A stretch of 64,000 bases of DNA from a virus (IMGVR_UViG_3300032046_005540:96001-160000); one strand, 5' to 3'; numbered from the stretch's first letter, positions 38,844 through 63,921 are shown. A program made the numbers and translations. The notes: generated from the sequence alone by a model not told the origin.

Positions 38844-39773
38844 TTATGTTACATGAATGATAACACCACCAACAGAAGTAGAACCTCCTACAATTGTATA
38901 AATTCTAATAAAATACAAAGAAGTAACGGATAATGTAGATATAGGAAGAAGTAAATCATAAAAACCACTACCTGCTGGAAAACTTGTAGAAGTTGTAAGA
39001 ACTACACTTTCTGTTAATGAATTAAGAATATCAACTTGAAGAGTTCCCGGAGCAACAGCAGTCAAAACATAAAATCTTACAGTCATAAGAGTACTATCTG
39101 CTGAATGTTTATATGCTATTTCAGCTTTCTTTCGTGTTCCACTATTATCAACCCAATACATAGGCCAAGCCATATTATTTAAAACAGTGCCTGCTTGACG
39201 ATCTTTATTCCAAGCTTCATCAACTATTGGAATCGCAACTAATTGAGATCTTAATAACAAAAGAGGACGTTGATCTGCGCCTAAATAAGATAAACATATT
39301 CCTCCACTTTCATCACTAGGAGCAGAACCTTCTCTAAGAATTCTATAACTATCATATGCTCTAGTATAATGAAAGGCTCCACTATCATCATTTTCAGAAA
39401 TACTATATTGCACATCATAATAAATATTTACATAATCTCCAGAACCACTTGCTGTTTTTGAAGGCCAAGCTGGATGATAGTAAGGATCAGTAGCAATACT
39501 ACCACTTGCAGTTATACTATCTGGAACATATATTATTCTCCCATATTTATCAATAGCAATTCCTGAATTAACAACACTTCCACTAACTTGTAAATCATTA
39601 TAGGATAAAGAAGGTATTGCAACTCCAGGCTGTTCTATAAGAGCAGCTAAAGTATCCCTAAATAATCTAATTTTTGAATATTCTATATTATTAAGATCCT
39701 GTTCAAAAACATTTTGATCTTCAAAAAATATACTTTTAAAACCATTGTAAGACATTATACCCTCCACAATCAA
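38844..39773 (-). CDS. putative tail fibre / baseplate appendage protein (paralogue 3)
   Basis: Shares an N-terminal module with the two upstream ORFs; lies after the baseplate wedge. Confidence 0.6.
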   Translation of the reverse strand: MIVEGIMSYNGFKSIFFEDQNVFEQDLNNIEYSKIRLFRDTLAALIEQPGVAIPSLSYNDLQVSGSVVNSGIAIDKYGRIIYVPDSITASGSIATDPYYHPAWPSKTASGSGDYVNIYYDVQYSISENDDSGAFHYTRAYDSYRILREGSAPSDESGGICLSYLGADQRPLLLLRSQLVAIPIVDEAWNKDRQAGTVLNNMAWPMYWVDNSGTRKKAEIAYKHSADSTLMTVRFYVLTAVAPGTLQVDILNSLTESVVLTTSTSFPAGSGFYDLLLPISTLSVTSLYFIRIYTIVGGSTSVGGVIIHVT

Positions 39774-40777
39774 ATAACATCAATAACCATCTCTGAAATC
39801 ATAGCAACATCTGTTGGATTAACATTTGCTAAAGATACGGTAACATCATATAATACATTAGATAGTAAAGTTGTAGGTAAATTAATAGAAAAAGAATAAC
39901 TTCCAGCACCCGCAAAATTATAAGTATCAAAAACAGTAGCAATTATAACCTTAACACTTCCGGGATCAGAAGCTGCAGAAGCCGTAAAATGAATATTCAC
40001 TTGTGCTTCTCCATAATATCTAAAAGATGTTCTTGCTTTTAAAATAAGAACTCCCGTGTCTGGTCCTAAATCTCCAGATTGCCATGCAATAGCAGCAAAA
40101 GAATTATTAGCAACATCTGTTGCAACAATTGATTTTCTAAAAATTTCCCTTGCTGGTGTAGTAAATGTTTGTATAGCACATAATAAAAGAGGTCGAATAT
40201 CATTAATACTTCCACTACTTGGTATATCTCCATCAGTATTAATAGGAAAACTTGCTAAACATAAACCACCACTATTTTCACTAGGTAAAACATTCTCAAC
40301 AGAAATCCTATAACTATCATATTCCCTAGTATAAAAAGAGGTCCCTTCATCATTTGTTCCTGAAATACCCTGTTGAGTTGTATAATAAATATTTACATAA
40401 TATGTAGTAAGTTCTTCCGGTAATTGATTATGAGCAATATTTTGCCTATCTGGCCATGCTGGATGGTAATAAGGATCAGTATAAATACTACCACTTGCAG
40501 CAGTAGAACTAGGAACATAAATTAATCTACCAAATTTATCAACAGCATATCCAGGATTAATAGTAAAATGTTTTGCATCAACATATTCTACTTTCAACGC
40601 AGACTCACTAAGAGAATGTATTGCTACTCCAGGTTGTATTATCATTGACTTAATAGAATTTCTAATAGTTTCAAGTTTTGTATATTCTATATTATTAAGA
40701 TCTTGAGAATACATTAGTTGATCGTCAAAGAATTTACTTCCAGCACCTCTATAAAGATCAGTAATAGTTAATACCAT
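39770..40777 (-). CDS. putative tail fibre / baseplate appendage protein (paralogue 2)
   Basis: FF.DQ...DL.NIEY.K, QPGVAI, PG.A.DK.GR.IYVP, YHP..P. Confidence 0.6.
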   Translation of the reverse strand: MVLTITDLYRGAGSKFFDDQLMYSQDLNNIEYTKLETIRNSIKSMIIQPGVAIHSLSESALKVEYVDAKHFTINPGYAVDKFGRLIYVPSSTAASGSIYTDPYYHPAWPDRQNIAHNQLPEELTTYYVNIYYTTQQGISGTNDEGTSFYTREYDSYRISVENVLPSENSGGLCLASFPINTDGDIPSSGSINDIRPLLLCAIQTFTTPAREIFRKSIVATDVANNSFAAIAWQSGDLGPDTGVLILKARTSFRYYGEAQVNIHFTASAASDPGSVKVIIATVFDTYNFAGAGSYSFSINLPTTLLSNVLYDVTVSLANVNPTDVAMISEMVIDVI

Positions 40778-40786
40778 TTTTCCTCC

Positions 40787-41833
40787 TCAATCTACATCAA
40801 TAACAAGATCTCTTACATAAAAAGTTCCCGCATACGTAAAAGTTCGCATCCAAATTTCTACAGAATACAAAGTACTTGGAGTTAATCCAGAAACATCTAA
40901 AGAAAAATCACATATCTGAGAATTAACAATAACATTATAAGAACCCGAAGTCATTAAAATATGTCCTGGACTAGTATAAATATAAGCATAAACATATGCA
41001 TTAGTTGAAGGTTGAGAATAACTTGGAACACAAAATCTAACATTCATTGCTGTTGATCCCGAACGATGTTGATAACTAATATCAGCTTTTGTTTGATTAT
41101 ATGCAGTTGCAGTTGCTGCCCAATAATTATTACTAGCCAACGCATTTGCTAAATTAGTAGCTATTCGGGACAATGCAAAAACTCTTCGAGAACTTGGAAC
41201 AGAACCACTCGCAGCTACATTTGAATATACTTCCAAAAGAGGTCTCATATCAGTAATTTCGCTAAATCTAATATTACCACTATTATTTACTTCAAAACTA
41301 CCTAAACATACTCCTAAACTTCCTGACCCAAAACTACTTGAAGTTCCAGCTTGAAAATCTTCACAAGCAATATAATAACTATCATAATCACGAGTATAAT
41401 AAGATTCTCCTTCATCATCCGATTCAGTAATATCTTGTTGAGTGTTATAATAAATATTTACATAATATCTTGTAGAAACACTTGGCACTTTGCTATGAGG
41501 TAAATTTTCTCTATCAGGATATTTTGGATGATACTCTGGATCGTCAATAGTATTTCCATATTGAGAAACATCATTTGGAACATAAATTAATCTACCAAAT
41601 TTATCTATTGCAAATCCTGGATTAACAGTAAAATGTTTAGAATCAACATATTCTACTTTCAAAGAGGAATCAGAAAGAGACTCGATAGCTACTCCAGGCT
41701 GTTTTATACAAGCAGCTAATGAATCTCGAATAGTTTTAAGTTTTGTATACTCAATGTTATCGAGATCTCTATGAATATAATTAACATATTGATCATTAAA
41801 AAATATACTTCCAGCACCTTCATATGATACCAT
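40787..41833 (-). CDS. putative tail fibre / baseplate appendage protein (paralogue 1)
   Basis: Same conserved N-terminus with a divergent beta-rich C-terminus. Confidence 0.6.
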   Translation of the reverse strand: MVSYEGAGSIFFNDQYVNYIHRDLDNIEYTKLKTIRDSLAACIKQPGVAIESLSDSSLKVEYVDSKHFTVNPGFAIDKFGRLIYVPNDVSQYGNTIDDPEYHPKYPDRENLPHSKVPSVSTRYYVNIYYNTQQDITESDDEGESYYTRDYDSYYIACEDFQAGTSSSFGSGSLGVCLGSFEVNNSGNIRFSEITDMRPLLEVYSNVAASGSVPSSRRVFALSRIATNLANALASNNYWAATATAYNQTKADISYQHRSGSTAMNVRFCVPSYSQPSTNAYVYAYIYTSPGHILMTSGSYNVIVNSQICDFSLDVSGLTPSTLYSVEIWMRTFTYAGTFYVRDLVIDVD

Positions 41834-41845: not shown

Positions 41846-43255
41846 TTACAAAATAATAGATGTATAATATGGATCTGCAGAACCACTTTCATATGCTTTT
41901 ACTGAAAACTGGTGTAATTTAAAACTATCAACAAACCAAGTAAATACATGCACTCTATATTGATAATATCTTTCAACGCTTCCTTTATAAATAACTTGCC
42001 CTGAATATACTTCTGACCAAGCACCAGCTGGAGGTAAAGCGTTAAATGATCTTGCTTCAACTCTAATTTGGCAATCATACCCTAAATCTGGAACCCAATC
42101 ATAAGCCCAATCATAATCACTATAAATTAAATTAGATTCTGTAAGATCAATTATAGGACTTGTATAAATATTATTAACAATAGCCCCACTTGATTTTACA
42201 AAACCCCCAGTTCCAGGAACAGTCATTGTAGTTGAACCACTAAAAGCAGAATCAATAGTTGGAACTAAATTACCAACTGCTCCACAACTAACTTCAAATA
42301 CACTTGGATCATAAAAAGAACCACTCGAACCAGAACTAAGTTGAGCTGTTGTTGTTACTGCAGAATAATAATTTTCATAATAAACTCTTAAATCAGTATG
42401 AGCAGGCTTTACATCTCTCAATGCCTTTTCAATAGCAGTTTGCCTATCTTTTTGAGGTTCAGGTAACCAAACAATAATATCTGCTGCAAACTTTCCTTCT
42501 AACTTATCATATAATCTTGTATTTTTCCCAAGCTTACTAAAAGTAACTACATAATTACTTCCTGAAGAAAAACTATGTGGAGGTGCAGTAATTGGATAAT
42601 AAACTAATAAATAATCCCACCAAGAACCTCCGTAATAATTAGTAAGAATTTGAGTTAAATCAGCAGAACCTGATTCTAAAAGTAAAGCACCACTCCATTC
42701 ATTTTTAAACCAATTTTTACCAGCATCTATAATATAATACGGACTAGTACTAGCAACAGAAACAACTCCTATCTCTGTTTTCAATTTCCAACGTGGTATT
42801 TGATAATATTCTTTTGTATCTGGAGTTATTAAAGTAAAAGCGTGCCCTACTCTTTTCATTGCATTAATAGTTCCTCCAGTCATTGCTGCTTGCATTAAAA
42901 AGTTTATTTCCTTTCGATAACTTGGAATAGATCCAGATCCATAATAACCAATTATATAAGAACCAGACGCATAAGAACCTGAAAGAGGAGTATATAAATC
43001 TTCATTAGCATTTTGGTAGAAAAACTTTCGTTGCCCAAAATATGTTCCAAAATTATCATAAAGCTTTTGAGTAGAAGCAGTATCAATACTTAAATCCTCA
43101 TACACTTCTTCAAGATCAATACTTCCTGAAGCAAATTCATTCGCATACGTTCTGATAACTTTGTATAGATGAGTATCATCAGAAAAATATGCTGCATAGT
43201 ATTTAGTTATTAAACCACGTAATTTTTTTATAAAAGAATTTAACGAGGTAGCCAT
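41846..43255 (-). CDS. baseplate wedge protein (P2 gpI / T4 gp7-like)
   Basis: DLSIDTA...LYDNFG, YR...L...GGT...MK, L..VKPAH; follows baseplate J. Confidence 0.7.
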   Translation of the reverse strand: MATSLNSFIKKLRGLITKYYAAYFSDDTHLYKVIRTYANEFASGSIDLEEVYEDLSIDTASTQKLYDNFGTYFGQRKFFYQNANEDLYTPLSGSYASGSYIIGYYGSGSIPSYRKEINFLMQAAMTGGTINAMKRVGHAFTLITPDTKEYYQIPRWKLKTEIGVVSVASTSPYYIIDAGKNWFKNEWSGALLLESGSADLTQILTNYYGGSWWDYLLVYYPITAPPHSFSSGSNYVVTFSKLGKNTRLYDKLEGKFAADIIVWLPEPQKDRQTAIEKALRDVKPAHTDLRVYYENYYSAVTTTAQLSSGSSGSFYDPSVFEVSCGAVGNLVPTIDSAFSGSTTMTVPGTGGFVKSSGAIVNNIYTSPIIDLTESNLIYSDYDWAYDWVPDLGYDCQIRVEARSFNALPPAGAWSEVYSGQVIYKGSVERYYQYRVHVFTWFVDSFKLHQFSVKAYESGSADPYYTSIIL

Positions 43256-43264: not shown

Positions 43265-44677
43265 TTAACTTTTTACAGAAACAGTAACTACTCCAGCTTG
43301 GGCATAAGAATCCCAAGGAATTACTAAATTCCCATCTGCATCTTGTGTAATATTTCCAGTTGCTATATTTTCTTGAAACTTTGTAAGAGGAACTAAAACA
43401 TCATCTACTCCTTCAACTGCAGCAATTATTGCTATAATATCTGACTGCTGAACTTCCTGGCCAATTAAATAACTATTTAGTTTTTCTGTTATTGCAGTTT
43501 GAACGCTTGTAGCTAAAGTTGAAGCATCATACCCAGCAAATAATTCAACAGTAGCAGTAACATCTATCCAGCGAACTTTTGCTTCCTTAACTAAAACATC
43601 TGCACCAACAATCTTTGCACTATCTCCATCAACTGCTGCCTGTAAAGTAGAAATTAATGCATTATATACATAAGTTATTATAATAGTTTCACCATCAGCA
43701 AGAATTGGTAAAAAGTAAAATTCATCATTACCACGAACCGACCCAGCATAAACACTAGAATCTTTTACAATAGTATAATGAGTACCTTCAGTTAAATTTC
43801 CAGTAACACTTCCAACAGCAGAAAAACTTCCACTTACTGTATAAAGATGAACTGGTTGTGAATTAAAAGTATGATAGTCTGCTCCAGAATAATAAATAAA
43901 AGTATCAATTGATTGATTAGAAACTCCACCTCTTACATAAATATCGACAGCACCAAAAGATGATCTTAATGTATATGCTTCCCCAGGACCTACAACTAAA
44001 GCATCTGTAACATTTTCATCTTTCATTACTTGTTCATAATAACCTGCCTTTGTTCCTACATTATTTCCTAATAAAACACTTTTTACTCGTAATGTTAAAG
44101 CTGAAATAGATTCTTCATCTTCTCCTGTAGTTATTGTAGCTTCATTAAAACATCCAGAAACATCTGCAACAGCAGTAACTAAAACACAAATAGCACCAGC
44201 ATCAACATTAGCTTGGGATCCTCCAGCAACTGCTCTTATTGGAGCTTCTGCTTCCCACTGACCAGTATCAGGATTAAAACTTCCAGGATTTGATATAGTA
44301 ACAGTTTGTAATGTAACAAATTGTTGAGCACCAACTTCTGCTCCAGGTTTAGTACTTATTGTAGTTCCTGCTGGAATAGTTGCAGTAGTTCCAGATCTAT
44401 TATAAAAAGTTACTGTTCCTGTTGCCCGAACTGCGGCTTTTCTTTCCAGTTGTAAATTCTCTGCTAATTTTACTAAATCATCTGTAGAAGCTAAATCTGG
44501 AGATTGAGCTTTCGAAATTACATCCAATTCAGCATAAAAATTATCTAATTCATTTGCAACCGGATTAATTATAACATCTCTTGTAAAAGTTCCTTCTTTC
44601 GTGTCCACACTTGGATGTAGCCTTTTCAAAAAGTTAATCATACTTTGAACAATATTTGAAAAACTCTTTCTCGCCAT
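43265..44677 (-). CDS. baseplate J-like protein
   Basis: L..LA....L.RK.A..ATG.VTF, IPAGT, G...NV.AG.I, N.....GEDEES...L..R, G.VDIYV. Confidence 0.9.
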   Translation of the reverse strand: MARKSFSNIVQSMINFLKRLHPSVDTKEGTFTRDVIINPVANELDNFYAELDVISKAQSPDLASTDDLVKLAENLQLERKAAVRATGTVTFYNRSGTTATIPAGTTISTKPGAEVGAQQFVTLQTVTISNPGSFNPDTGQWEAEAPIRAVAGGSQANVDAGAICVLVTAVADVSGCFNEATITTGEDEESISALTLRVKSVLLGNNVGTKAGYYEQVMKDENVTDALVVGPGEAYTLRSSFGAVDIYVRGGVSNQSIDTFIYYSGADYHTFNSQPVHLYTVSGSFSAVGSVTGNLTEGTHYTIVKDSSVYAGSVRGNDEFYFLPILADGETIIITYVYNALISTLQAAVDGDSAKIVGADVLVKEAKVRWIDVTATVELFAGYDASTLATSVQTAITEKLNSYLIGQEVQQSDIIAIIAAVEGVDDVLVPLTKFQENIATGNITQDADGNLVIPWDSYAQAGVVTVSVKS

Positions 44678-45612: not shown

Positions 45613-46611
45613 TTACAAAGGTCGTGTATTACCATCATGATCGGTGTATATTCCAACATCTGTAGCAGTGCTTATACAAGGAGAAGATCCTAATAAATAA
45701 TAATCTGAATTCGAAACGTCAAAAAATTTTGGATCTCCTTCTTTTCCATTAGCTTCCTTCCCATTTAAAGAACCCGAGCCCGCCTGAAATACTGTTAAAT
45801 TATCAAATTCACAATCTCCTGCTTCAACCCAAACATCCACATAAACAAATTGCCCATTAGTATATTGATAAAAATTATAATCTATATGAAATTTATTATT
45901 CCAATCAGATACATGTTGGGGGTAATACTTAATCAAATAATAACTCAAAGAACTTAAAACTCCAGCAAAAATATTATTTTTAATATATATATCAAATAAT
46001 GCATTATTTGGAGAATATATCACTAAACATTGAGTATTATAGCTTGCATCCTTATCTGTTCCGAAGACAGTATTATAATAAAAATGCCCTGTTTCACCAT
46101 TAACAAAATAAAATGCTACAGCAGGTACAGAATGAATTTTGCCTTCTGCAAAAATATTATTATAAACCTGAACCTGATTACATCCATAACCCCCGCCCCC
46201 AAATTGAGAGGAATATTTTGTTCTACAATTTCTAACTATTGTATATATACCTACAATACTCACATCATTAATAGCACTACTCCCATTATCAACATAAAAC
46301 CCATCCATAGTAATATAATCTCTTTGAAAATTTGCTCTTTTAATTTTGATTTCTCCTGAATCTCCTGTATAAATTCCAAATCTATCAGCAATATATTCTA
46401 TTCTACTTCCAGAACTACCATTATTTACAGGTTGAATTCCTCTTTCTATATCAGTTGACTCAAGATAATAAGAACCTGATCCAACATATACAGTATCTCC
46501 AGCAACCATATTCATATTAGCATTTCTTAGAGTCTTCCAGGCTCCACTTCCACTCAGCCCATTATTGTAATCACTTCCACACCATCGTCTAATATAATAA
46601 GTGTAAGTCAT
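45613..46611 (-). CDS. right-handed beta-helix (pectin lyase-like) virion protein
   Basis: YY...G.D.N.G.S...AWKT, AGDTVYV..G.Y, NNIF, DP.F......Y.L...SPCI, D.DG..RP. Confidence 0.75.
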   Translation of the reverse strand: MTYTYYIRRWCGSDYNNGLSGSGAWKTLRNANMNMVAGDTVYVGSGSYYLESTDIERGIQPVNNGSSGSRIEYIADRFGIYTGDSGEIKIKRANFQRDYITMDGFYVDNGSSAINDVSIVGIYTIVRNCRTKYSSQFGGGGYGCNQVQVYNNIFAEGKIHSVPAVAFYFVNGETGHFYYNTVFGTDKDASYNTQCLVIYSPNNALFDIYIKNNIFAGVLSSLSYYLIKYYPQHVSDWNNKFHIDYNFYQYTNGQFVYVDVWVEAGDCEFDNLTVFQAGSGSLNGKEANGKEGDPKFFDVSNSDYYLLGSSPCISTATDVGIYTDHDGNTRPL

Positions 46612-49319
46612 ACTAACACCTTCCCAGTAATTTCTAACTCTTTTCCTTCTACTGTCAAAATATATATTGTGAATTCTAACTCCGTAGTAGAAATTTCTGT
46701 GATTTCAACTTTTTTAACACTGTCAATCAATTCTCTCGGCGAAAAATAACCGTCTCCAACACCTTTGTTTGCTTCTCTTTTTTGATATTTCATTAAATTA
46801 AAAATAGAATTTAGTAAATCTGATTTTATTATTGGTTTTAAATCATCTATTGGAACTTGTCCTACCCTCTTTTTAAGATTTGCTCCATATTCAGGGTGAA
46901 AAGGATTAAAATCTGTTATTGTAATCTTTTCTAATTCTTGAGCCAATTTTGTTTCATCCCATACTTGAGGAACTAATCCTCCAGCATCAAATTGAATATC
47001 ATAATAAAAACCAGTTCCTAAACATCTAGGACAAGTATTTAAAGTAAATTGACCTCTATTTGGTAAATAATGAGTACAAGGCCATTTTAATTGAGGTTCT
47101 CTATAAGGAGTTCTACGTATTAAAATAGGCCCTATTTTAGGAATACTCCAAGCAAATGGAGGTTCTATAGGTTTTATAAAAACTTCATCACATCCAATAT
47201 CAAATCCAAGTCCCATCGGGCGATTTTGTAAATCATAATCAATATAAACACCTACATTATAAGAAGACCCATCCCAATCTGTCCATTGTATAAGTGCATT
47301 ATCAACACAAGGAGAAAGCACTTTTATATGAAATCCATCTCCTTCAAACAAAGGATTTCCTTCATAAGAATTTAAATCTTGAGATGATCCTGATTGCCAT
47401 AAAGTTAAAGTATCCCAATAGTTTGCTCCTTCATATGCAAATACTTGTCCCACATCTCCATATTGATAAAAGTTACCATCAAAAATACATTCATCAATAG
47501 AACCTGCTGGTATTGAAATAACGGGGTCTGATCCAACGGAAGGAGCACTACTTTCTTTTACACATTTCATTATATTATTTATAACTATATCATACCTACT
47601 ACCATTAAAACAATAACCTCCTACAACTGCTCTTCCATGGGGATGAATAAAAGTATTATGAAAATAAAAATTAGCACAACCATTTGCAGTATACATTGCA
47701 TATCTAGCATAATTTATTGCTCCAAAAAATGGACTCGCCCACGCTACGTTATTAATAAATTTACATCCCCAAACCCCACCACAAAAAAATCCATGATCCA
47801 CTCTACATTGTTCAAATTCTAACCCATGTCCTCCCCAAGATACTACTCCTGCATGTACAGTATCAATATATGTAAAAAAATCATAAAAATAAATATTAGA
47901 AACTCTAATATGGTGTCTTGGCATCGTAAGATAATAAGGGTATTGGGCAGACATATTTAAAAAGAATTTTATTTTTATATCTCCAGGAAGATCTCCAGTA
48001 TAAATTCCTTTTTTATCTCCTACCCACGTGGTATATGATCCTGAAATTGATGCATAAAAGCCTTCATCATATGTTCCAGAACCTATATATACAATATCAT
48101 AAGGGCTAACAGTATCTGTAGCTTTCCTAATAGTTTTCCAAGCATTACTTGGACTTAAACCATCATTTGCATTATCTCCACTTGTTCTTACATAATAAGT
48201 TTTAGTATAAAGTTCTGGAATATCTTGAAATTCATAACATCCTTTACAAACTGAAGATCCAGATCTTAAATTATATTCTATATCAAAATATGGAACAAGA
48301 CCAAATGATCCAGTTGGAGCACCTGTGTTTACACAAGGAGATAAATTAAATAACTTGTACCCAGATGCATTTTGATAAAATCCTCTTAAATATGTCCATC
48401 CTTCTGTAGCATTTCCATCTAATCCTGTATCTGCTTGCCACTGTGTTAAATTTTTTATACCATAACCAAAATTTCCTTCATAATATTCATAATGATTATA
48501 ATCACAATATTGCCAAATTACATTTCCTCCACAGTAATAATTATATACTCCACCACATTTATTACTAAAATTAATGAAAATATTATTAATGCTTGAAACA
48601 TATATTGGATCAGTTGCAGTCATAGCAACCACTCCAGTCACCCCGACCACAGCAGACATTTGCAAAGTGCAATTAATTATTTTTAAATCAATAGCTACAT
48701 GAAAAGAATTGTTATTATTTGAGGAAACACACCCAATAATTTTTTCTGCATAACCCAATAAACAATTTGTAAATTGACCATTGGCATTACCAATACCACT
48801 ACTTTCTGCAATTTTACATTTATCTAAATATCCTATACAATTTCCAGGATTTTTACCAACAGAACTTTCTATATTTACCGAACCTCCATAATAATAAATC
48901 CCTCCAGACCATACACCATAATGTGAAAAAATATCAAAACCCTCAACATTTATAACAGCATCTTGAATTATAACAAAATCAACTTGCACAGGTCCAGGAG
49001 TATCATCTGTAAGCCATTGACAATTTGGATCTGCTAAAAAATAAACAGGAATTGTTGAAAGCCCTCCTTGTTTTGCCCAGATATGGTTTCCTGTAGAACT
49101 ATAAGGATCTTCTCCAGATGTATAAGTTCCAGGACCTACATGAATAGTATCTCCTTCTCTTATAATTCCTGAATAAATTGCTGCATTACACGGAGCAAAT
49201 GTCTGCCAAGCATCGTCTTTACTAGTTCCACTATTTGAATCATTTCCATTTTGTTTAGAAATATACCAATCGGCAGCTATTTCAGCGTTAGAAGTAATAA
49301 TTTGTTGTTTAATAACCAA
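46608..49319 (-). CDS. tandem beta-helix protein fused to a C-terminal gp25-like domain
   Basis: Two G.D.N.G.S...AW.T beta-helix units, each ending SPC...D....R....(D/K)GC.E; then CTH..CPRCLG.G and KLAQELEKITIT..NPFHPEYG. Confidence 0.7.
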   Translation of the reverse strand: MVIKQQIITSNAEIAADWYISKQNGNDSNSGTSKDDAWQTFAPCNAAIYSGIIREGDTIHVGPGTYTSGEDPYSSTGNHIWAKQGGLSTIPVYFLADPNCQWLTDDTPGPVQVDFVIIQDAVINVEGFDIFSHYGVWSGGIYYYGGSVNIESSVGKNPGNCIGYLDKCKIAESSGIGNANGQFTNCLLGYAEKIIGCVSSNNNNSFHVAIDLKIINCTLQMSAVVGVTGVVAMTATDPIYVSSINNIFINFSNKCGGVYNYYCGGNVIWQYCDYNHYEYYEGNFGYGIKNLTQWQADTGLDGNATEGWTYLRGFYQNASGYKLFNLSPCVNTGAPTGSFGLVPYFDIEYNLRSGSSVCKGCYEFQDIPELYTKTYYVRTSGDNANDGLSPSNAWKTIRKATDTVSPYDIVYIGSGTYDEGFYASISGSYTTWVGDKKGIYTGDLPGDIKIKFFLNMSAQYPYYLTMPRHHIRVSNIYFYDFFTYIDTVHAGVVSWGGHGLEFEQCRVDHGFFCGGVWGCKFINNVAWASPFFGAINYARYAMYTANGCANFYFHNTFIHPHGRAVVGGYCFNGSRYDIVINNIMKCVKESSAPSVGSDPVISIPAGSIDECIFDGNFYQYGDVGQVFAYEGANYWDTLTLWQSGSSQDLNSYEGNPLFEGDGFHIKVLSPCVDNALIQWTDWDGSSYNVGVYIDYDLQNRPMGLGFDIGCDEVFIKPIEPPFAWSIPKIGPILIRRTPYREPQLKWPCTHYLPNRGQFTLNTCPRCLGTGFYYDIQFDAGGLVPQVWDETKLAQELEKITITDFNPFHPEYGANLKKRVGQVPIDDLKPIIKSDLLNSIFNLMKYQKREANKGVGDGYFSPRELIDSVKKVEITEISTTELEFTIYILTVEGKELEITGKVLV

Positions 49320-56029: not shown

Positions 56030-56038
56030 TTTATCCTC

Positions 56039-56875
56039 CTAATCACTTTTTCTTTCTCCTTCAGCAAGTTGACGTAAATATTTCAAAGTATCCGCATTAC
56101 GAACAAGAGTTTGCTGTATTTCTTGTTGAGCTCTACTAACAGAAGTTGCTTCATATTCTACTGCAAATTCTACTCTATATTCAAACTGAAAAGGTTTTTC
56201 TCCAACTTCTTCATATCCAAAACTTCTTAAGTGCCCTACAAAAATATTTCCTCTATATTCTAACCCTAACATTTGCATAAAACCAAGTTCTTGTTGAGTT
56301 TGATCTTCTTCATATAATATTTCAAAATCTTTAAATATCCTATAAGCTTCAGAATTATCTTCTGTTGGACTTGGAATATCGGTTATTGATTGAACATTTT
56401 CTGGAGGAGTCGGAGTTACATTTCCAGTCGTTCCTCCAAACGCAATAGTAGATATATCTGGTCCCCAATGTTGAAATTCAAAACCACCTCTAGTTCTTAT
56501 TTTAGTAATTAATTTATTTTTTGCAATGCTAATATTTCGAGGATTTATGTGAAAAGTAAAATATGCCTTGGCCCCAACATTTTCTTCTTTCTCTTTTCCC
56601 ATTACATCAAATCTTTCACTATTTCTTATAATAAAAGGAGTATTTTTTTCATCAACATCTCTATAAACTCTATAAACCATACCAGCATCTACTTTTTTAG
56701 TTAAATCAGTATCATCATTAATTTTTTCCATTGATCCTTCAATAATATATTCTGCTCCTCTTGGAAATAATGGATTACTTCGAGTGGCTACATTTATATA
56801 TCCAGAAACCGTTGCTCCTTTTTCTTCCCTTACTTTATTTAATTTCCAAATTCTTATAATTTCTCTTTTTCCCAT
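56039..56875 (-). CDS. tail tube initiator / baseplate-tube junction protein (putative)
   Basis: F.INP.NI....K......TRGG...HWG.D...I.F.GTTG, F.G....F...E....PF.F.Y...F.V; follows the tape measure gene. Confidence 0.65.
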   Translation of the reverse strand: MGKREIIRIWKLNKVREEKGATVSGYINVATRSNPLFPRGAEYIIEGSMEKINDDTDLTKKVDAGMVYRVYRDVDEKNTPFIIRNSERFDVMGKEKEENVGAKAYFTFHINPRNISIAKNKLITKIRTRGGFEFQHWGPDISTIAFGGTTGNVTPTPPENVQSITDIPSPTEDNSEAYRIFKDFEILYEEDQTQQELGFMQMLGLEYRGNIFVGHLRSFGYEEVGEKPFQFEYRVEFAVEYEATSVSRAQQEIQQTLVRNADTLKYLRQLAEGERKSD

Positions 56876-56897
56876 AAATTACCTTTCATTTACTTTT

Positions 56898-58856
56898 TTA
56901 TGCCCCTCCATGTATTAAATCAGAAATACTTGGCTGTTTTCCTAAAGGAATTGCGATTATTGGAAATTTTATAATAATTTCTTCCTTACCTTTTGTTATC
57001 TCCGGAATCCCCGCTTCTATTGTTCTTATTCTTTCGAGGGGAAGAGCTCGTTCACCAACCCCTTTTCTATATTTTTCATAAGTATAAGCAATTTCCCTTT
57101 TTAAATCTTCAGGAGAAAGATATCCTCCTTTTACTTCTTCCATAGCTTTTCGTGCAAGTCTTTCTTCACCAGTTTCACGTAATCTTTGAGCTCCTAATAG
57201 TCCTGTTAATGCAGTATATTCTCCTGCTGCAGTTGTTTTTAACCATTCCTTTTTTTCTCTTTCTTCTGCTTTTGTTTTAGCCCATTCCTGAGCCGCTGTA
57301 ACAGCTTTCACAACTTGGTCAAGAGATATCATAGAAGTGGTAAGTAAAGCTAAATAGGGTATTAACCTTGCAAATCCCAAAGTAGTAGCTCCTAATCCAG
57401 CTCCAAGTCCTGCTGCTCCGACACCTAATCCTCCAGCACCTCCACCAAATCCTACTCCTCTTAAAGCTAAAGCAGTCATTATAGCTCCAGGGACAGCACC
57501 TAAAACAGCACCTCCAATACCTCCAGCAGCACCAGCAACCCCTCCTAACCCTTGGGATCTCAAATAATCCATAAATTGTAAGAAAGGATAATACCATTCT
57601 CGCATTCCTTTAGTACTTGTTTCCATCGTCTTTCTTAATTCATCAAGAGCATTAGTAAGTTCTTGTGTAGGAGTTTTCATTTCCTCAATAGACTTTGTAA
57701 AAACTTCACCACCTTTTTCTAATGTGGGGACTACTCGTTGAAATTGCATAAGTTCCATATCCATAAATTGTTTAAAACCTATAGATTGTATTGCTTTATT
57801 AGAAAACATTTTTAAGGTTTCTTTTCCAGCAATTGCGAAAACTTGCCCAAAAAGCTCTGGAGCGGCTGTTGTTTGAAAAACATCTGCCTGCTGCGCAACT
57901 CCTAAACCTCTGAAGGTAGAAGCCTCCCCATATCTTTTTTTAGCTGCCACATCTAATGCTTCTTTAGTTTCGGGAGAAACATCTTCCCAAGCTCTGCCCA
58001 ACATCATTGCCATTTTTACTCTAAGGTTGAACCCTCCTGCAGTCATTTGAGATTGAGCTAATGTTTGCATAACATTTTGTGCTTCTCTTGCGGTTATAGT
58101 TCCTTTCTTTAAATCATCAGTAAATAAATTCGTAAATGCCATTGCATCACGAATTGAAAAACCATATTGTTGTATTTGAGAAGTCAACCCAAAAACAGTA
58201 TTTTTATAAAGTTCTAAAGGAACTCCCGCGGCCGCTGCATTCAAAGCCATTGTTTCATAAGAATCAGCAATATTATCTATTGACATTCCTAGTTGTTCAT
58301 GCATAGTAACAAAATCTCTTGGAAAAGACTTACTTATGCCTAAAGAATATTTAACAAAAAGAGGAAGCATTTGATTAATTTCTTGTTCCGACCACATCCT
58401 CTGCTCAGTTAACGCTTTCATAATCTCTTCAGCCGCAGATCTTGCTGCTTTACCTCCCATCCCGGAAGCCGTAGAAAGTTGCTCATAATATTTAGTAATT
58501 GATACTACACCTATTCCAAGAGCTCTATTTAATTCAGACTGTTTCTTTTCAAGGTTGTCCATTTCTCGCAACATTACTGCCATACCACCAACTGCTAAAC
58601 CTAATCTTGTAGTAAATAAATGTAATTGTTGGGAATTCTCAAAGATAAGAGGTCCAAGTCTTGCACTCTCTTTATTCATGACCCCAAGCTGATTTAAAAA
58701 GGTATTAATATGCCCCCCAGCATAAGACCAGCCAAAGAGTCTAAATAAAGCTTCGAAAGAATTTGTTAAAGTAGTAACACCTACAGCAGCTTCTTTTCCA
58801 CCAGGCCCTAACTTACCTAATTGTTCTGACATTCCAGCTAATTCTTCACCAACCAT
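56898..58856 (-). CDS. tail tape measure protein
   Basis: Ala/Gly/Met-rich helical protein with a Gly-rich hydrophobic stretch, downstream of tube and chaperones. Confidence 0.75.
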   Translation of the reverse strand: MVGEELAGMSEQLGKLGPGGKEAAVGVTTLTNSFEALFRLFGWSYAGGHINTFLNQLGVMNKESARLGPLIFENSQQLHLFTTRLGLAVGGMAVMLREMDNLEKKQSELNRALGIGVVSITKYYEQLSTASGMGGKAARSAAEEIMKALTEQRMWSEQEINQMLPLFVKYSLGISKSFPRDFVTMHEQLGMSIDNIADSYETMALNAAAAGVPLELYKNTVFGLTSQIQQYGFSIRDAMAFTNLFTDDLKKGTITAREAQNVMQTLAQSQMTAGGFNLRVKMAMMLGRAWEDVSPETKEALDVAAKKRYGEASTFRGLGVAQQADVFQTTAAPELFGQVFAIAGKETLKMFSNKAIQSIGFKQFMDMELMQFQRVVPTLEKGGEVFTKSIEEMKTPTQELTNALDELRKTMETSTKGMREWYYPFLQFMDYLRSQGLGGVAGAAGGIGGAVLGAVPGAIMTALALRGVGFGGGAGGLGVGAAGLGAGLGATTLGFARLIPYLALLTTSMISLDQVVKAVTAAQEWAKTKAEEREKKEWLKTTAAGEYTALTGLLGAQRLRETGEERLARKAMEEVKGGYLSPEDLKREIAYTYEKYRKGVGERALPLERIRTIEAGIPEITKGKEEIIIKFPIIAIPLGKQPSISDLIHGGA

Positions 58857-58873
58857 AAAACTCCTTTATAAAT

Positions 58874-58912
58874 AAAAAAAAGCAGGTAACCTATAAAAGC
58901 ATTACCTGCTTT
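58874..58912 (-). terminator. Rho-independent terminator
   Basis: AAAGCAGGTAA-N12-TTACCTGCTTT followed by a T run on the minus strand. Confidence 0.75.
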
Positions 58913-58966
58913 GAGTTCTTCTCAAAAGCTTGGTTATTTATAAAATCTTCGTTCAAAAAACTTTGT

Positions 58967-59461
58967 TCAAAAAACCTCGTTCAACATCCCATTTGATAAT
59001 AAATTTTCATAAACCTCTTTAAAAGATTGCAAAAATTCTTTTTCAGAGTAACTATCTTCAAGGTCATCTTCACAGAGGATTTCATAATAACGGCGGGCTA
59101 ATTCATCCTTAGTAAATCCCGGATGGTTTTTAATTTGGCAAAGAACTGTCGAAGGACTTACTATTCCTTTATTTAACGGTAGTTTTTCAAAATATTTATG
59201 CCCTTTAGCAGTTATTACAGGAACTTTCTCCATTTCATTTTCCTTCACAATTTCATCAGAAGGGTCTAAACATTCTGGTTTAAAAAGAAGATGCCATGCC
59301 GAAGTATCACGAGTTCTATCTAACCTTACTTCAATTATAGAAGGAAAAATAGCTACTACTGTTCCTGTTTTTCCTACAGGATCAACAATACCATTATCTC
59401 CATTACGGGCTCTTTCATTAATCTTAACCTTCATTCTTCCCTTTACTTCACTTTGTTTCAT
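58967..59461 (-). CDS. hypothetical moron-like protein
   Basis: Has its own promoter, AGGAGG RBS and terminator; N-terminus SH3/KOW-like (G.TGTVV). Confidence 0.6.
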   Translation of the reverse strand: MKQSEVKGRMKVKINERARNGDNGIVDPVGKTGTVVAIFPSIIEVRLDRTRDTSAWHLLFKPECLDPSDEIVKENEMEKVPVITAKGHKYFEKLPLNKGIVSPSTVLCQIKNHPGFTKDELARRYYEILCEDDLEDSYSEKEFLQSFKEVYENLLSNGMLNEVF

Positions 59462-59484
59462 CTCTCCTCCTTATTTTATTGTTC

Positions 59485-59515
59485 AATATATTATACACAA
59501 AATTTAAAGAAAAGA
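59485..59515 (-). promoter_or_regulatory. sigma70-type promoter (31-bp element duplicated at 59869-59899)
   Basis: TTGTTC-N18-TATAAT; identical 31-mer upstream of the next ORF. Confidence 0.75.
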
Positions 59516-59578
59516 ACAATTTTCTTAGATATAATCCTTTTTGATTTTGGGGTATAATTAAAGACATTTTACTACCTC

Positions 59579-59848
59579 CTAAATAACTATTTCAAACTTA
59601 TATCCTCTATCATTATACATTGTAATTTTTTTAGATTGCTTTCTTTTAATAATGCTACTACAAGAAGACCAATAAATGTTATTTTGTAATTTTTCTTTAG
59701 GTTCATTCTTCTTATTTGAACACATCCCCCACAATATAAGAAAGGCTAATCCAACAGGAGTTACTGCAACTCCTACAATAAGTATAATAAAAAGAATTAC
59801 AAAAAATCCTTTGCATAATTTTTCTATTATATTTAAAAAGTTTAACAT
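59579..59848 (-). CDS. small membrane protein (moron-like)
   Basis: Long hydrophobic segment; own promoter and RBS. Confidence 0.55.
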   Translation of the reverse strand: MLNFLNIIEKLCKGFFVILFIILIVGVAVTPVGLAFLILWGMCSNKKNEPKEKLQNNIYWSSCSSIIKRKQSKKITMYNDRGYKFEIVI

Positions 59849-59868
59849 TTATTGCTCCTTTCTTATCT

Positions 59869-59899
59869 AATATATTATACACAAAATTTAAAGAAAAGA
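59869..59899 (-). promoter_or_regulatory. sigma70-type promoter (copy 2 of the 31-bp element)
   Basis: aatatattatacacaaaatttaaagaaaaga, identical to 59485-59515. Confidence 0.75.
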
Positions 59900-59907
59900 G
59901 TAACTTT

Positions 59908-60543
59908 TTACATATAATCCATCTCAACACTATCCCCTTCATCCTGACTTTCAAGATATTCTTGAGTTTTTTCATCAAACAAAACATTTTCTCGAGTGCT
60001 TTCTTCTGATTGTTTTACTCGATCATACAACTCTTTATCTAACCAAGGCTGCAACATTTCAAAAACATTTTTAATTAATTCAACTATGTATTTATTTTTA
60101 TCTTTATTACTTTTTACTGAATTATAAAAGATCCACAACAATTGAGCATTATTATATTTTGAAGAATTTAAAACTTTATCAATTCCAGAACTTTTAGATA
60201 CTTCCCATAAAAACTTAGATTGAACATCATTCTCTACAATATCCTCAACTATTTTATTTAAACCTTTAATCCATTCATTGTAAACTTTAGTATACTTTTC
60301 AAATATTTTATCAACTACAAAAAAGTTTAAAGATCTTAAAAAAGCTTCTTTTTCTTTCTCAGATTTATTTGGAATAATCAAAACAGAAGCTAAAAGTTTA
60401 ACACATTCCTCTAAAGTCTGAGGAAAAGGTTTTTCATCAATTTTTAAAGTTAAAGACCAATCAACTTTTTTAAAAGGTTTAATTGTTATTACAGGTAATA
60501 TATTTTCAAAAATAGCATTTTTTACTTGCTCTTTACTAAACAT
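59908..60543 (-). CDS. putative tail assembly chaperone 2
   Basis: Between tube and tape measure; weak similarity to the upstream chaperone (KPF...W, LLA, VV..I...Y.K). Confidence 0.55.
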   Translation of the reverse strand: MFSKEQVKNAIFENILPVITIKPFKKVDWSLTLKIDEKPFPQTLEECVKLLASVLIIPNKSEKEKEAFLRSLNFFVVDKIFEKYTKVYNEWIKGLNKIVEDIVENDVQSKFLWEVSKSSGIDKVLNSSKYNNAQLLWIFYNSVKSNKDKNKYIVELIKNVFEMLQPWLDKELYDRVKQSEESTRENVLFDEKTQEYLESQDEGDSVEMDYM

Positions 60544-60552
60544 AAATTCTCC

Positions 60553-60586
60553 AAAAAAAAGCGAGCAGTTTTCTATTTCTGCTCGC
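60553..60586 (-). terminator. Rho-independent terminator overlapping the chaperone-1 stop codon
   Basis: GCGAGCAG-N10-CTGCTCGC followed by T8 on the minus strand. Confidence 0.75.
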
Positions 60587-61136
60587 CTTTAGGTTCTACA
60601 TAAGCTCTAACTTGAACAGAAGGATCTTTAGATTCTTCATCAAGCTTTTTTACTTCTTCAACAACTTTTTGTGCTTCTACTTCTTTTTCTTTTGTTTCTT
60701 CCTTAGTCTCTTCTCCTTTTCCCAATAAAAAAGTTTGTTGTTCTTCTTGCAATTTATTATACTCAGCATCGATAACATTTACAACAACTGAATCCCACTT
60801 TTTAATAAGGATTTTTTTATAATCAAGAACCGAAATAGCAGTTTCCTTATCAAGATCGTGATCCTTATTATAAGCATCCACTTGTTCCTGAGTAATAAAA
60901 GGTTCTCCATTAATAGAAATTATACATCTTGCAAGCAATTCAACTTTAGCAAGCCAAGCAATTACACTAAAAGGAGTATCTGCAAGAGCTTTTGCTATCT
61001 CAATATTCTTTCCTACATCTAACAACTCAATTTCAACTTCCCAATCTTGAACTTTGGATCCTTTCCAAGTTCTAAAAGGTTTAACTTTTTTCTTTGCCAT
61101 ACGAGTTATGTATGTCAAAACTTCACCATAATTCAT
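60573..61136 (-). CDS. putative tail assembly chaperone 1
   Basis: Immediately after the tube gene; ELLARCIISING.P...W...VV..I...Y..L. Confidence 0.6.
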   Translation of the reverse strand: MNYGEVLTYITRMAKKKVKPFRTWKGSKVQDWEVEIELLDVGKNIEIAKALADTPFSVIAWLAKVELLARCIISINGEPFITQEQVDAYNKDHDLDKETAISVLDYKKILIKKWDSVVVNVIDAEYNKLQEEQQTFLLGKGEETKEETKEKEVEAQKVVEEVKKLDEESKDPSVQVRAYVEPKGEQK

Positions 61137-61164
61137 TTCTTCCTCCTTTACTTTAATAAACTAA

Positions 61165-61647
61165 TTATGCAACCCGAGTAGGTCTTACCGTCATTGTTTC
61201 AACATTAGTAATTGCTCCTGTAGAAATAGTTTTACCCCAATCAGTAATCCAACAATCCTCATAAGTTGTATAAACAATTCCTGCATTACCATCAGCCTTC
61301 CCCGGAGGACCAGTTACCGCATTATTAAAAAGATTTGTTTGCGGATGATGAATTGCTTCTTTAATATCTACAGATCTAATTTGATTTTGAATATCTTTAG
61401 TCACAATTCCGAAATGATCAAACAAAACTTTATTATATAATCGAACTTTCTCAAGTCTTATTGTATAATCAGTAACTCCAGGAACGATCTCTTTTATTTG
61501 GCCTCCGTTAGTTGCGATTTCTCTTACAACATCAACCGTCCTTGTTTGCGTTGGATTAAAACTTCGAAGAGTACCAACAGGAATATCATCGATAGATACA
61601 TCATAGGAAAACCATACTTCGCTAGCAGTGAATGGAAGTCTTGCCAT
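61165..61647 (-). CDS. tail tube protein
   Basis: VG.L.SF.P...R....VREI......EIVPG, Y.DCWI....; downstream of sheath; GGAGG before ATG 61647. Confidence 0.8.
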   Translation of the reverse strand: MARLPFTASEVWFSYDVSIDDIPVGTLRSFNPTQTRTVDVVREIATNGGQIKEIVPGVTDYTIRLEKVRLYNKVLFDHFGIVTKDIQNQIRSVDIKEAIHHPQTNLFNNAVTGPPGKADGNAGIVYTTYEDCWITDWGKTISTGAITNVETMTVRPTRVA

Positions 61648-62527
61648 AATTTTCACCTCCAATTAAATTTTTTAATTTCATTTTTACTTCTTCAGTATTA
61701 TTCAAAATATCATCTTCCCAAAATCTTAGAAGAATGAAGTTATTGCTTTTAGCTACTTCATTATGTTTAATATCTCTTTCTTTTACTTTTAATTGCATTT
61801 TATTTAACTTTTGAAACTTTAAAGGATTACTATGATAGTAATCTCCATCTACTTCTATAAGAACATTAGAATTGAGAATATGAAAATCAAATAAACAATG
61901 CTCAAGTCGATATTGATGTTCAAAAGAAATGTTTAAAGAAGTCAAAATCTCTTTCATTTTAAGTTCAGGTTTTGTATTTGTAAAAGGACCTGAATGATTT
62001 TGAATATGAAGTAATGCACTTTTACTCATTTTTTCTTTTGTTTTTTCAGAATGAGGCCCTAATTTTTTACCTTCACGAGATTTTGATTGTTTTCTTTTTA
62101 TTTCAGAAGCTTTCTCTTCCCCATAAAATTCTTCATAAGTTTTTTCTCTTCGAGGACCTCCTATTTTTTCACAAGATTCTTTAGGCCAATTCTTTTTATG
62201 AGGTCGCGGAGGTTTTCTATTTCTTTGTGCTTCTAAAAAATTAACCCGAAAAACAGGGTCAGACATTGTTTTTTTAACACTCTTACTTGTTTTTTCGTGC
62301 TCTTCTTTTCGAGACCATCTAACAAAAGAACTTGCTTTTAACTTTTTTTTATGTTCTTCAGATTTTGGCTTACCTTTATTTGCTTCACTTTTTGATCTTG
62401 TAGGAATATTATATTTTCGCATCCACCGTAACACAGTTGCATCTGAAATATCTAACAAATTTCCAATTTGTTTTAATGTTAATCGTTTTCGAATATAATA
62501 TTCTTCGAGTATTTCTTTACTTATCAT
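61622..62527 (-). CDS. free-standing endonuclease: HTH + NUMOD3 + DUF559/Vsr-like domain
   Basis: LTLKQIG..L.IS..TV..W, KSEEHKKKL, HSEKTKEKMS, TKPELKM, IEVDGDYYH, LLRFWE. Confidence 0.82.
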   Translation of the reverse strand: MISKEILEEYYIRKRLTLKQIGNLLDISDATVLRWMRKYNIPTRSKSEANKGKPKSEEHKKKLKASSFVRWSRKEEHEKTSKSVKKTMSDPVFRVNFLEAQRNRKPPRPHKKNWPKESCEKIGGPRREKTYEEFYGEEKASEIKRKQSKSREGKKLGPHSEKTKEKMSKSALLHIQNHSGPFTNTKPELKMKEILTSLNISFEHQYRLEHCLFDFHILNSNVLIEVDGDYYHSNPLKFQKLNKMQLKVKERDIKHNEVAKSNNFILLRFWEDDILNNTEEVKMKLKNLIGGENYGKTSIHC

Positions 62528-62550
62528 TTTAATCCTTATAATTATTAAAA

Positions 62551-63921
62551 TTACACATACAAATAAAAAGTCACGCGAATGTAGTCAAGTGGATAAAGGA
62601 ACTTTATTGCACCGGTCACGTCTACTTGTCTTGGATCTACTAAACTTTGAACCGCCTTAATTGGAACCTCTCCAGTTAGGGGATCTGTTTTTGTTCCATA
62701 AGCATAAATATATCCATTTCTAACCATTGCGTTCCAAATAGCCTTTAATGCTTCTTCAACCAATCCAGGAGTTTCTGGCCCTATCACAATTCCTTTACCA
62801 ATAAACCTTTCATCAAGTTTATTTCTTGTAATCCTGCGAACATAATCATCACTTGCTATAATAGAAACTTCAACCGTATCCGCAGAAGTTGGATCAGTAG
62901 TTAAAGCATGTCTAACTTTTACAACTCCAGACACACTATAACACACCAAAACTCCATTTGCTCCTAGCCGATTCATATCATATGGTTCATATTCCTCATC
63001 TAAAAGAGAGAAGCCTACAAGAGTTTTTCCTGTTACTGGATATACAACTTTCTCTTGACTCGTAATAGCACCAGCAACTGCGGCCGCTATATAAGAACCA
63101 TCTAAAGTCAAATCATTTCTATCCACATTATCTCCAGGAAATACTAAAATAGCACGACTACTTGCTAATGCGTTTGCTTTAGTAATATGATTATCAACAG
63201 TCGAAGAAGAGCTCATTCCCAAAATACATTCTCTTTCATGTCCAATTAAAGGTTGAGATTCTAACAAACAATGATTAACAAAATAAGCTTGTTGTGTAGA
63301 ATCAACGGTAATTGGAACTACATATGCAACATTCTTTTTCTTTCTTAACTTGTTTACTGCAGTTTGCCAATCAGAATCAGCAGAACCACTAACTTGAACA
63401 CACATAACAGCAGGAGCACCATTTTCTAATGCTAAATTTGCAGCCATTGTCATAGAACCATCAGCGGCTGCACTTTCCTCTCCATAAAAAGCAAGCACAT
63501 CATCTGAATCTACAAACGTTGTAGGATCAAACTGAGTTGCATCTACTGGATAGGTATAAGAAACATAATATGTTTCTCCTTCTCTTGGCTGACCATCTCC
63601 AGGAGTTCCACTATTCCATTCTATATATCCTAAATTATTCTCATCAGTTCCAGCACCATAAGTCCAATTTCCTATCCAATTTGAATAACTTCCAGAAACA
63701 CCAGGAATAGCAGCAACTTGACTAACAGTAACATTAAAATGTTGTAAAAAATCTTGATTTGAAGACCCAGAACCAGCTGCTCTGACCACAGCTTCATCTA
63801 TTACTGTTCTAATACTTGGACCAGTTGCTATAATTGCTGGAATTCTGACCTCCTCAGAAATATTAATTATTCTTTGATTAGCAATACTAACGACTTCCAC
63901 TCCAGGACTTTTATATACCAT
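62551..63921 (-). CDS. contractile tail sheath protein
   Basis: Y.SPGV.V, A.LA.ENGA, ER, G.Y.AAA.AG, MN.L...GV, V.VRH.LTT, DPR.V.V.....YPL.YI.V.F. Confidence 0.9.
   Translation of the reverse strand: MVYKSPGVEVVSIANQRIINISEEVRIPAIIATGPSIRTVIDEAVVRAAGSGSSNQDFLQHFNVTVSQVAAIPGVSGSYSNWIGNWTYGAGTDENNLGYIEWNSGTPGDGQPREGETYYVSYTYPVDATQFDPTTFVDSDDVLAFYGEESAAADGSMTMAANLALENGAPAVMCVQVSGSADSDWQTAVNKLRKKKNVAYVVPITVDSTQQAYFVNHCLLESQPLIGHERECILGMSSSSTVDNHITKANALASSRAILVFPGDNVDRNDLTLDGSYIAAAVAGAITSQEKVVYPVTGKTLVGFSLLDEEYEPYDMNRLGANGVLVCYSVSGVVKVRHALTTDPTSADTVEVSIIASDDYVRRITRNKLDERFIGKGIVIGPETPGLVEEALKAIWNAMVRNGYIYAYGTKTDPLTGEVPIKAVQSLVDPRQVDVTGAIKFLYPLDYIRVTFYLYV

Follow-up and report, generated by a model that had tools for sequence, protein, structure and literature searches.

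We analyzed a 64,000-nt stretch of viral DNA (IMGVR_UViG_3300032046_005540:96001-160000, hereafter "the window"), which covers bases 96001-160000 of a single viral contig of 168,267 bp and 30% G+C. The tripeptide Ser-Gly-Ser (SGS in one-letter code) is about twelve times more frequent in the outer tail proteins of this phage than their composition predicts. The last fibre-like gene is followed, 88 bp further on, by two adjacent glycosyltransferase genes, GT-A and GT-B, and homologues of this pair co-occur with enrichment of the same or a sister tripeptide in otherwise very different phage genomes. We consider it probable that S-G-S acts as a sequon at which the phage's own enzymes O-glycosylate virion proteins in the cytoplasm. 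In a more detailed version, [S/T]-G-S (strict S-G-S in this lineage) would be read in exposed loops of outer virion proteins by a conserved heterodimer of GT4-type glycosyltransferases, lineage-specific enzymes would build differing glycans, and the system would be widespread, in phages that infect Flavobacterium, Microcystis, Rhodothermus, and numerous hosts not yet cultured; we give this version an even chance of being correct. Coordinates below are those of the window unless marked "genome", and nearly all window genes, including the tail, glycosyltransferase and sugar-cluster genes described here, lie on the minus strand.

Excess and specificity of Ser-Gly-Ser

Translation of the minus-strand open reading frames (ORFs) yields 30 SGS in the 3,622 aa of eight tail proteins. 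Three of these are fibre-like paralogues, about 40% identical to each other: one of 309 aa (38844..39773; SGS at residues 64, 90, and 109), which has no family match and is called fibre-like from its position only, one of 335 aa (39770..40777; SGS at 95 and 188), and one of 348 aa (40787..41833; SGS at 170, 209, 258, and 296). The richest is a 469-aa protein encoded directly after Baseplate J (41846..43255; 10 SGS vs. 0.41 expected), while the Baseplate J-like wedge subunit itself (470 aa, 43265..44677; phrog_6, E 7e-52) has one SGS, at 282. The remainder are a 332-aa tail protein without family match (45613..46611; SGS at 20, 45, 67, and 279), a 903-aa tail protein with weak baseplate-wedge and beta-helix-like matches (46608..49319; SGS at 353, 426, and 643), and the 456-aa tail sheath (62551..63921; phrog_2839, E 2e-37), with SGS at 51, 76, and 178, all in predicted loops of its N-terminal half. 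These counts (3+2+4+10+1+4+3+3) are identical to those of an earlier manual count made from the sequence alone (hereafter the sequence-only reading), and the two to three sites which that reading expected from composition compare with a computed expectation of 2.4-2.5.

When each protein of a nine-protein outer-tail set was shuffled separately, the 30 SGS stood against 2.48 expected (z 18.0; simulated maximum 8 in 1,000). In the structural block as a whole (22 ORFs), the same 30 compared with 3.45 expected (z 14.8, 0 of 2,000 shuffles), which makes SGS the top outlier of all tripeptides. The Poisson probability of the excess is 1.8e-18, or 1.5e-14 once multiplied by 8,000 tripeptides, and because SGS is the strongest of them all, its choice by an earlier reader adds no inflation.

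The SGS signal is specific and directional. Sister tripeptides occur at chance level in the structural-block ORFs (observed/expected: SGT 6/3.0, TGS 4/3.0, TGT 4/2.8), as do NGS (3/2.5), SGN (2/2.5), SAS (0/3.0), DGS and SGD, and a mild rise of GSG, SSG, and GSS is probably due to overlap with SGS contexts. The serine codons within SGS are a mixture of AGT and TCN, which places the signal at the protein level and rules out a DNA repeat or codon artefact. Low-complexity runs were rejected as a cause, adjacent SGS copies being found at just two places, and so was a general property of tail fibres, since control phages show no SGS excess (see below). Genome-wide, only SDA, DAN, and QQI rank above SGS, with MRK next after it; these tripeptides probably come from repeated linkers in giant polyprotein-like ORFs outside the window (genome 6833-11167, 15322-22196, 48395-58186, and others).

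Confinement to outer virion proteins

The distribution of SGS along the genome is uneven, and its excess is confined to outer virion proteins. A block of inner tail parts and two homing endonucleases (49329..62527) is devoid of SGS, as the sequence-only reading had already noted for inner tail parts; the block includes a tube-initiator-like ORF (56039-56875), a hub-like ORF with an M23 peptidase (52091-54472), an LRV/HEAT repeat protein (54473-56029), and small tail ORFs. SGS is equally absent from the ORF translations of the 20-kb sugar cluster, every transferase included, and left of 38.8 kb we recovered only the two copies previously counted, one of them in a 245-aa RaSEA-like ORF (8891-9628; TIGR01210, below cut-off). 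The rest of the genome holds 17 SGS vs. 9.5 expected. Six of the 17 belong to ORFs that neighbour the major capsid gene and lie upstream of the sheath, among them one with a weak match to a virion protein, and without these ORFs the count is near chance. A 168-aa ORF just upstream of the capsid gene (genome 6286-6792 and 5251-6240, respectively) carries 2 SGS vs. 0.17 expected, and could be a head decoration protein carrying the SGS tag for the capsid.

Conservation and structural context of the sites

Judging from alignments of homologues, SGS is under selection, with some sites invariant and others turning over at loop hot spots. Within the 469-aa protein, SGS at positions 43, 107, 308, and 339 is invariant in 12 of 12 sequences (40-94% identity) and that at 195 nearly so, with variable flanks; serine conservation is 76% inside SGS vs. 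54% for other serines, and SGS copies are gained and lost in a variable-length loop near residue 92. For the sheath, 81 homologues (35-93% identical) contain on average 3.43 SGS vs. 0.32 expected, with at least one in 81 of 81, the corresponding means for TGS and SGT being 0.96 and 0.33. These sheath sites recur at eight positions (49-51, 62, 76, 90, 104, 154, 178, and 206-207), all before residue 210, and each lineage uses only some of them, which suggests that the number of SGS is kept while positions shift. Among the three fibre paralogues, one site is common to two (site 95 of the second aligns with site 90 of the first) and the remaining sites differ. The sequence-only reading had described SGS as lying at non-conserved positions, a description that holds between some paralogues, but not for this shared fibre site or for the four or five sites of the 469-aa protein that are invariant across orthologues. 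Finally, two syntenic metagenomic relatives (L003, 168,190 bp, 40% identity, and L004, 107,894 bp, 62%) keep the fibre-then-transferase order and carry 20 and 26 SGS, respectively, in their tail proteins, vs. ~2-3 expected, and none in their transferases.

An AlphaFold2 (AF2) model of the sheath (predicted local distance difference test, pLDDT, 89.5; predicted template modelling score, pTM, 0.81), similar to solved sheaths with Z 30-35, places all three SGS and seven of the eight family positions in loops according to secondary structure, the eighth being at a helix start. Most of these modelled sites are located between strands of a beta-rich segment (residues 27-125). The SGS flanks suggest a weak extension of the motif: over 75 sites, the residue at +1 is hydrophobic in 49 (background 0.42, p 4e-5) and that at +4 acidic in 18 (background 0.10, p 5e-4), and no proline was found at -1 or +1.

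A conserved pair of glycosyltransferases

GT-A (37538..38755) is a soluble GT4 glycosyltransferase with matches to PF00534 and PF13439 above cut-offs, in which E279 and E287, forming an EX7E motif, are invariant. GT-B (36208..37362; PF00534 and PF20706), its conserved neighbour and predicted partner, is a second GT-B-fold transferase with invariant E271 and E279, so that the EX7E spacing is retained. Relatives of GT-A are found at 584 or more places in IMG/VR, and a GT-B-like ORF directly follows GT-A in 69 of the 78 fetched IMG/VR loci that have a GT-A ORF, with 5 more stopping at a contig edge. Adjacent GT-A/GT-B homologues, ~27-34% identical, also occur in Flavobacterium phage vB_FspM_immuto_2-6A (hereafter immuto), Microcystis phage Mel-JY01, and Rhodothermus phage RM378, as well as on further metagenome contigs.

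The genes downstream of the pair differ between lineages, with methylated amino-sugar genes here and in immuto (aminotransferases and a methyltransferase in the latter), and NeuB and a CMP-sugar (cytidine monophosphate-sugar) synthetase in a marine contig. A pair that stays constant while its downstream genes differ fits a step that reads a constant signal. The marine relative L083 (JGI 3300030117, 14,253 bp) presents, at 3692-13781, the pair followed by an epimerase/dehydratase, NeuB, an acetyltransferase, an aminotransferase, and a CMP-sugar synthetase; this nonulosonic-acid pathway suggests that the sugar placed on the one signal may vary from lineage to lineage.

Modelling supports binding between GT-A and GT-B. 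The score of the modelled complex (0.86 vs. 0.00 for the best of three controls) passes a mark that is reached by 58 of 80 solved complexes and by 2 of 110 mismatched pairs, model runs share at least 93% of contacts with a partner pLDDT of at least 91, and the predicted interface packs the GT-A C-terminal tail (394-404) on GT-B residues 241-250. Sequence searches of solved structures with GT-A and GT-B returned generic GT4 enzymes only. Apart from members of its own family, the proteins that GT-B matched best, among 1.84 billion, are giants 1,000-5,000 aa long that contain up to six GT-B-like domains in tandem.

Co-occurrence of the pair and the motif

When tripeptides were ranked genome-wide in 13 genomes, SGS and/or TGS was enriched in 8 of 8 genomes bearing the pair and in 0 of 5 without it (one-sided Fisher test ~8e-4, i.e., 1 in 1,287), in line with the co-occurrence with glycosyltransferases that the sequence-only reading had put forward as a check. 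Strict S-G-S is the pattern of this phage (47 SGS observed vs. 12.3 expected, rank 4) and of G001, the nearest whole genome tested (51/13.6, rank 1; GT-A 39% identical), with TGS at chance in both (9/9.2 and 12/13.3). More distant GT-A carriers are enriched in T-G-S too, namely immuto (SGS 65/24.5, rank 1; TGS rank 4), RM378 (29/11.2, rank 5; TGS rank 6, with SGT at 8/8.6), and genomes G002 (48/21.4, rank 6; TGS rank 10), G004 (63/26.7, rank 1; TGS rank 2, with SGT at rank 3005), and G005 (49/26.5, rank 14; TGS rank 1), a sequence pattern which hints that enzyme and motif change together. Mel-JY01 is enriched in SGS as well (89/32.9, rank 5; TGS 45/22.8, rank 33), and its repeats lift SGT too.

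On the other side of the comparison, SGS is unremarkable in T4 (14/15.5, rank 2982), K (13/12.5, rank 1950), SPO1 (10/12.7, rank 2862), and Myrna (24/18.6, rank 760), all of which lack the pair, and in S-CBS4 (18/12.6, rank 390), which has a weak single GT-A-like gene only. TGS is not enriched in T4, SPO1, Myrna, or S-CBS4, and not clearly so in K (18/10.1, rank 187). None of the phages T4, K, SPO1, and Myrna has an ORF with three or more SGS, and SGS is absent from the distantly homologous sheath of Myrna. As for the proteins concerned, the SGS-enriched ORFs of immuto are annotated as tail spike and tail fibre, while annotation is uninformative for those of RM378; the enriched ORFs of RM378 and Mel-JY01, and the fibre-like ORFs of this phage, matched no family in PHROGs or Pfam.

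Proposed mechanism and alternatives

In the mechanism we propose, the soluble GT4-type enzymes GT-A and GT-B, encoded right after the fibres, would act as a heterodimer, with GT-A as the putative catalytic half of this initiating pair. On fibre, outer baseplate, sheath, and some head-associated proteins, the pair would recognise S-G-S in exposed loops and put the first sugar on one of the two SGS serines. Other transferases, a LegC/PseC-like aminotransferase, and methyltransferases would then extend it to a lineage-specific methylated amino-sugar glycan, which might shield the particle from proteases or binding factors, or tune adsorption. The sequence-only reading had likewise taken SGS for selected acceptor sites of the adjacent glycosyltransferases; the excess, the selection, the confinement to the outer virion, and the co-occurrence with the pair all stand, and what we infer is the glycan on serine, together with the choice of acceptor serine, the sequence of events, and the function of the glycan.

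A number of points weigh against this proposal. The co-occurrence comes from 13 genomes that are phylogenetically non-independent, with distant phages as negative controls, and the pooled 10-kb flanks of GT-A at 80 viral loci show just a 1.85-fold SGS excess, a weak and again non-independent signal, because these flanks are mostly non-structural and the structural genes mostly further away. Since a GtfA-GtfB complex has already been solved, the passing complex score of GT-A and GT-B may partly reflect likeness to it, and with EX7E kept in both proteins, either of them could start the chain. Exposure is judged on the sheath model alone, and by secondary structure rather than solvent accessibility: mapping onto predicted structures, which was expected to put SGS in exposed loops, did give loops in the sheath, but the 10-site 469-aa protein could not be modelled (AF2 from 12 sequences, pLDDT 39, unusable). 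The major capsid protein contains no SGS (2.7% Ser, no Ser/Thr-rich tail). Lastly, DNA can be a further substrate of phage glycosyltransferases (Pyle et al., 2024, as cited in PMC12619734), and the phage studied here, with its ArcS/RaSEA-like and other deazaguanine genes, modifies its DNA.

Three other explanations were considered. The excess, specificity, and conservation of SGS demand a reader without naming which, and with many ORFs of the 168-kb genome lacking an assigned function, this reader could be the enzyme of another modification (phosphorylation, acylation, ADP-ribosylation), or the motif could be a docking site for an assembly factor co-inherited with the pair. We regard this as unlikely, given that GT-A/GT-B is the only gene pair found to track the motif across very different genomes (in a targeted test, not an all-gene screen), and that family scans of the cluster and tail block detected no kinase or other modifying enzyme. 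Slightly less probable again is that the target of the 20-kb cluster is DNA or a host polymer, and that it lies near SGS-rich proteins by chance or for some indirect reason. Such a role is consistent with the DNA-hypermodifying phage transferases known (as cited in PMC12619734), with the deazaguanine genes of this phage, and with the lack of a demonstrated target for most cluster transferases; however, it leaves the SGS excess and its link to the pair unexplained, the pair sits right after fibre genes in close relatives, and no flippase, polymerase, or membrane segment for export is found. Least probable of all is an unmodified, purely structural turn favoured by tail-protein folds, as might be suggested by the loop sites of the sheath model and by the hydrophobic residue after SGS, typical of a loop-to-strand junction, because the turn-compatible SGT, TGS, NGS, DGS, SGN, and SGD are at chance, the motif spans unrelated families (sheath, Baseplate J, fibre-like paralogues, and others), and T4, K, SPO1, and Myrna are without SGS-rich ORFs, down to the SGS-free Myrna sheath.

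Comparison with known glycosylation systems

Glycosylation of S-G-S by the phage's own enzymes, the reading we favour, would resemble two known systems in the way it works and belong to neither. In mycobacteriophages, phage-encoded glycosyltransferases add glycans to the C-termini of capsid and tail-tube subunits (Freeman et al., 2023, as cited in PMC12619734). As far as it is described there, that system shares with the one proposed here soluble phage glycosyltransferases and methyltransferases (~11 and 6 ORFs in this phage) that are proposed to decorate virion proteins inside the cell. Unlike in mycobacteriophages, the capsid protein and small tail ORFs of this phage have neither a Ser/Thr-rich tail nor SGS, and its candidate sites are isolated loop tripeptides of fibre, baseplate, and sheath proteins. 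Myrna, which belongs to the mycobacteriophage cluster with the nearest database sheaths, has neither the pair nor an SGS excess.

The second system is GtfA/GtfB, the O-GlcNAc (O-linked N-acetylglucosamine) transferase of serine-rich-repeat adhesins in Streptococcus and Staphylococcus, where two GT-B-fold proteins encoded side by side form one complex that starts O-glycosylation on cytoplasmic serines, and other enzymes extend the chain. GT-A and GT-B are likewise adjacent and modelled as a complex, and GT-A is a GT4-type enzyme of GT-B fold. The similarity between the two systems is, however, generic to GT4: TIGR02918 matches GT-B only, at 21.1 bits vs. a cut-off of 574.6, and no DUF1975 was reported in our scans. 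Moreover, GtfB is a partner subunit that has lost its catalytic residues, whereas GT-B keeps E271 and E279 of EX7E, the predicted interface uses the GT-A C-terminal tail, and the putative substrates are isolated tripeptides rather than long Ser-rich repeats.

More remote parallels exist. Bacterial autotransporter heptosyltransferases (TibC, Aah) work in the cytoplasm on a folded, beta-rich protein and glycosylate many of the serines in its exposed turns, and in eukaryotic proteoglycan xylosylation a Ser-Gly core with nearby acidic residues is the O-glycosylation signal, reminiscent of the acidic residues over-represented at +4 of the SGS sites. These enzymes are of different families, none of which was matched in the scans of GT-A and GT-B. 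Sequon-directed glycosylation in general (e.g., N-x-S/T) is characterized by over-representation of the motif, confinement to a class of substrates, and co-occurrence with a transferase, and all three are found here. The cultured pair carriers immuto, RM378, and Mel-JY01 share with this phage the adjacent pair and a genome-wide [S/T]-G-S excess, but their downstream sugar genes differ and their structural proteins have no similarity to those of this phage detectable by DNA search; immuto and RM378 also differ from it in accepting Thr as well as Ser at the first motif position.

The glycan cluster and genome setting

With the pair included, the 20-kb cluster encodes ~11 GT1/GT4/CgeB-like glycosyltransferases. 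Beyond the pair, the region 18616..36204 contains about nine more of these, six S-adenosylmethionine (SAM) methyltransferase ORFs (some partial), the LegC/PseC-like aminotransferase, an MTHFR-like ORF, and inserted homing endonucleases. PF13524 (CgeB-like) scores above gathering in ORFs 19383-20372, 21391-22347, 22344-23345, 31618-32559, and 35260-36204, which indicates domain membership only. None of the cluster ORFs has a membrane segment, as would fit enzymes acting inside the cell. Several methyltransferase ORFs (26784-27287, 27300-27677, and 32556-33074) give partial Pfam profile matches and adjoin NUMOD3/Vsr-like homing endonucleases (30845-31618 and 33068-33772); insertion of the endonucleases may have split these genes or cut them short.

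In order of transcription, the sheath comes before small tail ORFs and a homing endonuclease, followed by the tube-initiator-like ORF, the repeat protein, the hub-like ORF, and a second endonuclease, then by the two large tail proteins, a sheath-initiator-like ORF, Baseplate J, the 469-aa protein, and the three fibre-like ORFs, and lastly, beyond the 88-bp gap, by the sugar-gene block. The 518-aa LRV/HEAT-repeat protein lies within this tail module, flanked by the hub-like and tube-initiator-like ORFs. HNH-type homing endonucleases are unusually dense among the structural genes (window 49878-50984 and 61622-62527; genome 161565-162551, 163382-164362, and 11164-12147), and all are without SGS except the copy at genome 11164-12147. 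Elsewhere in the window, the RaSEA-like ORF (E 4e-30) and an ArcS-like ORF (9770-10561, E 2e-14) are found between a helicase loader and DnaB, and both score far below family cut-offs; immuto, for its part, has DpdA and QueC/D/E/F genes.

Blastn of the tail block against 50,697 deposited phage records gave no match, hence no close relative among them, and the sheath is ~30% identical to those of cluster C mycobacteriophages. A homologue of the 469-aa protein with 72% identity (P0004) is encoded on a 43.5-kb contig deposited within a 'Candidatus Cloacimonetes bacterium' metagenome-assembled genome, a weak hint as to host or habitat.

Implications

A full-text literature search turned up nothing relevant on an SGS glycosylation signal in phages or on O-linked glycosylation of phage fibres. 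To our knowledge, mycobacteriophages are the only phages whose enzymes have been shown to glycosylate the virion, and no signal has been defined for them. If confirmed in this role, [S/T]-G-S would give viruses of bacteria their first defined short signal for O-glycosylation. What this genome adds is the cleanest case, with a strict S-G-S at about twelve-fold excess, the largest glycan cluster, which comes directly after the fibres, and a defined and widespread transferase pair; as three cultured phages carry the pair, the idea is directly testable. If true, glycosylated particles would become predictable from sequence alone, the large sugar-gene clusters of environmental phages would be explained, and the motif and enzymes would offer a portable tag and enzyme pair for glyco-engineering. 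Such a system would also bear on the stability of phages, their recognition of hosts, and their visibility to immune systems.

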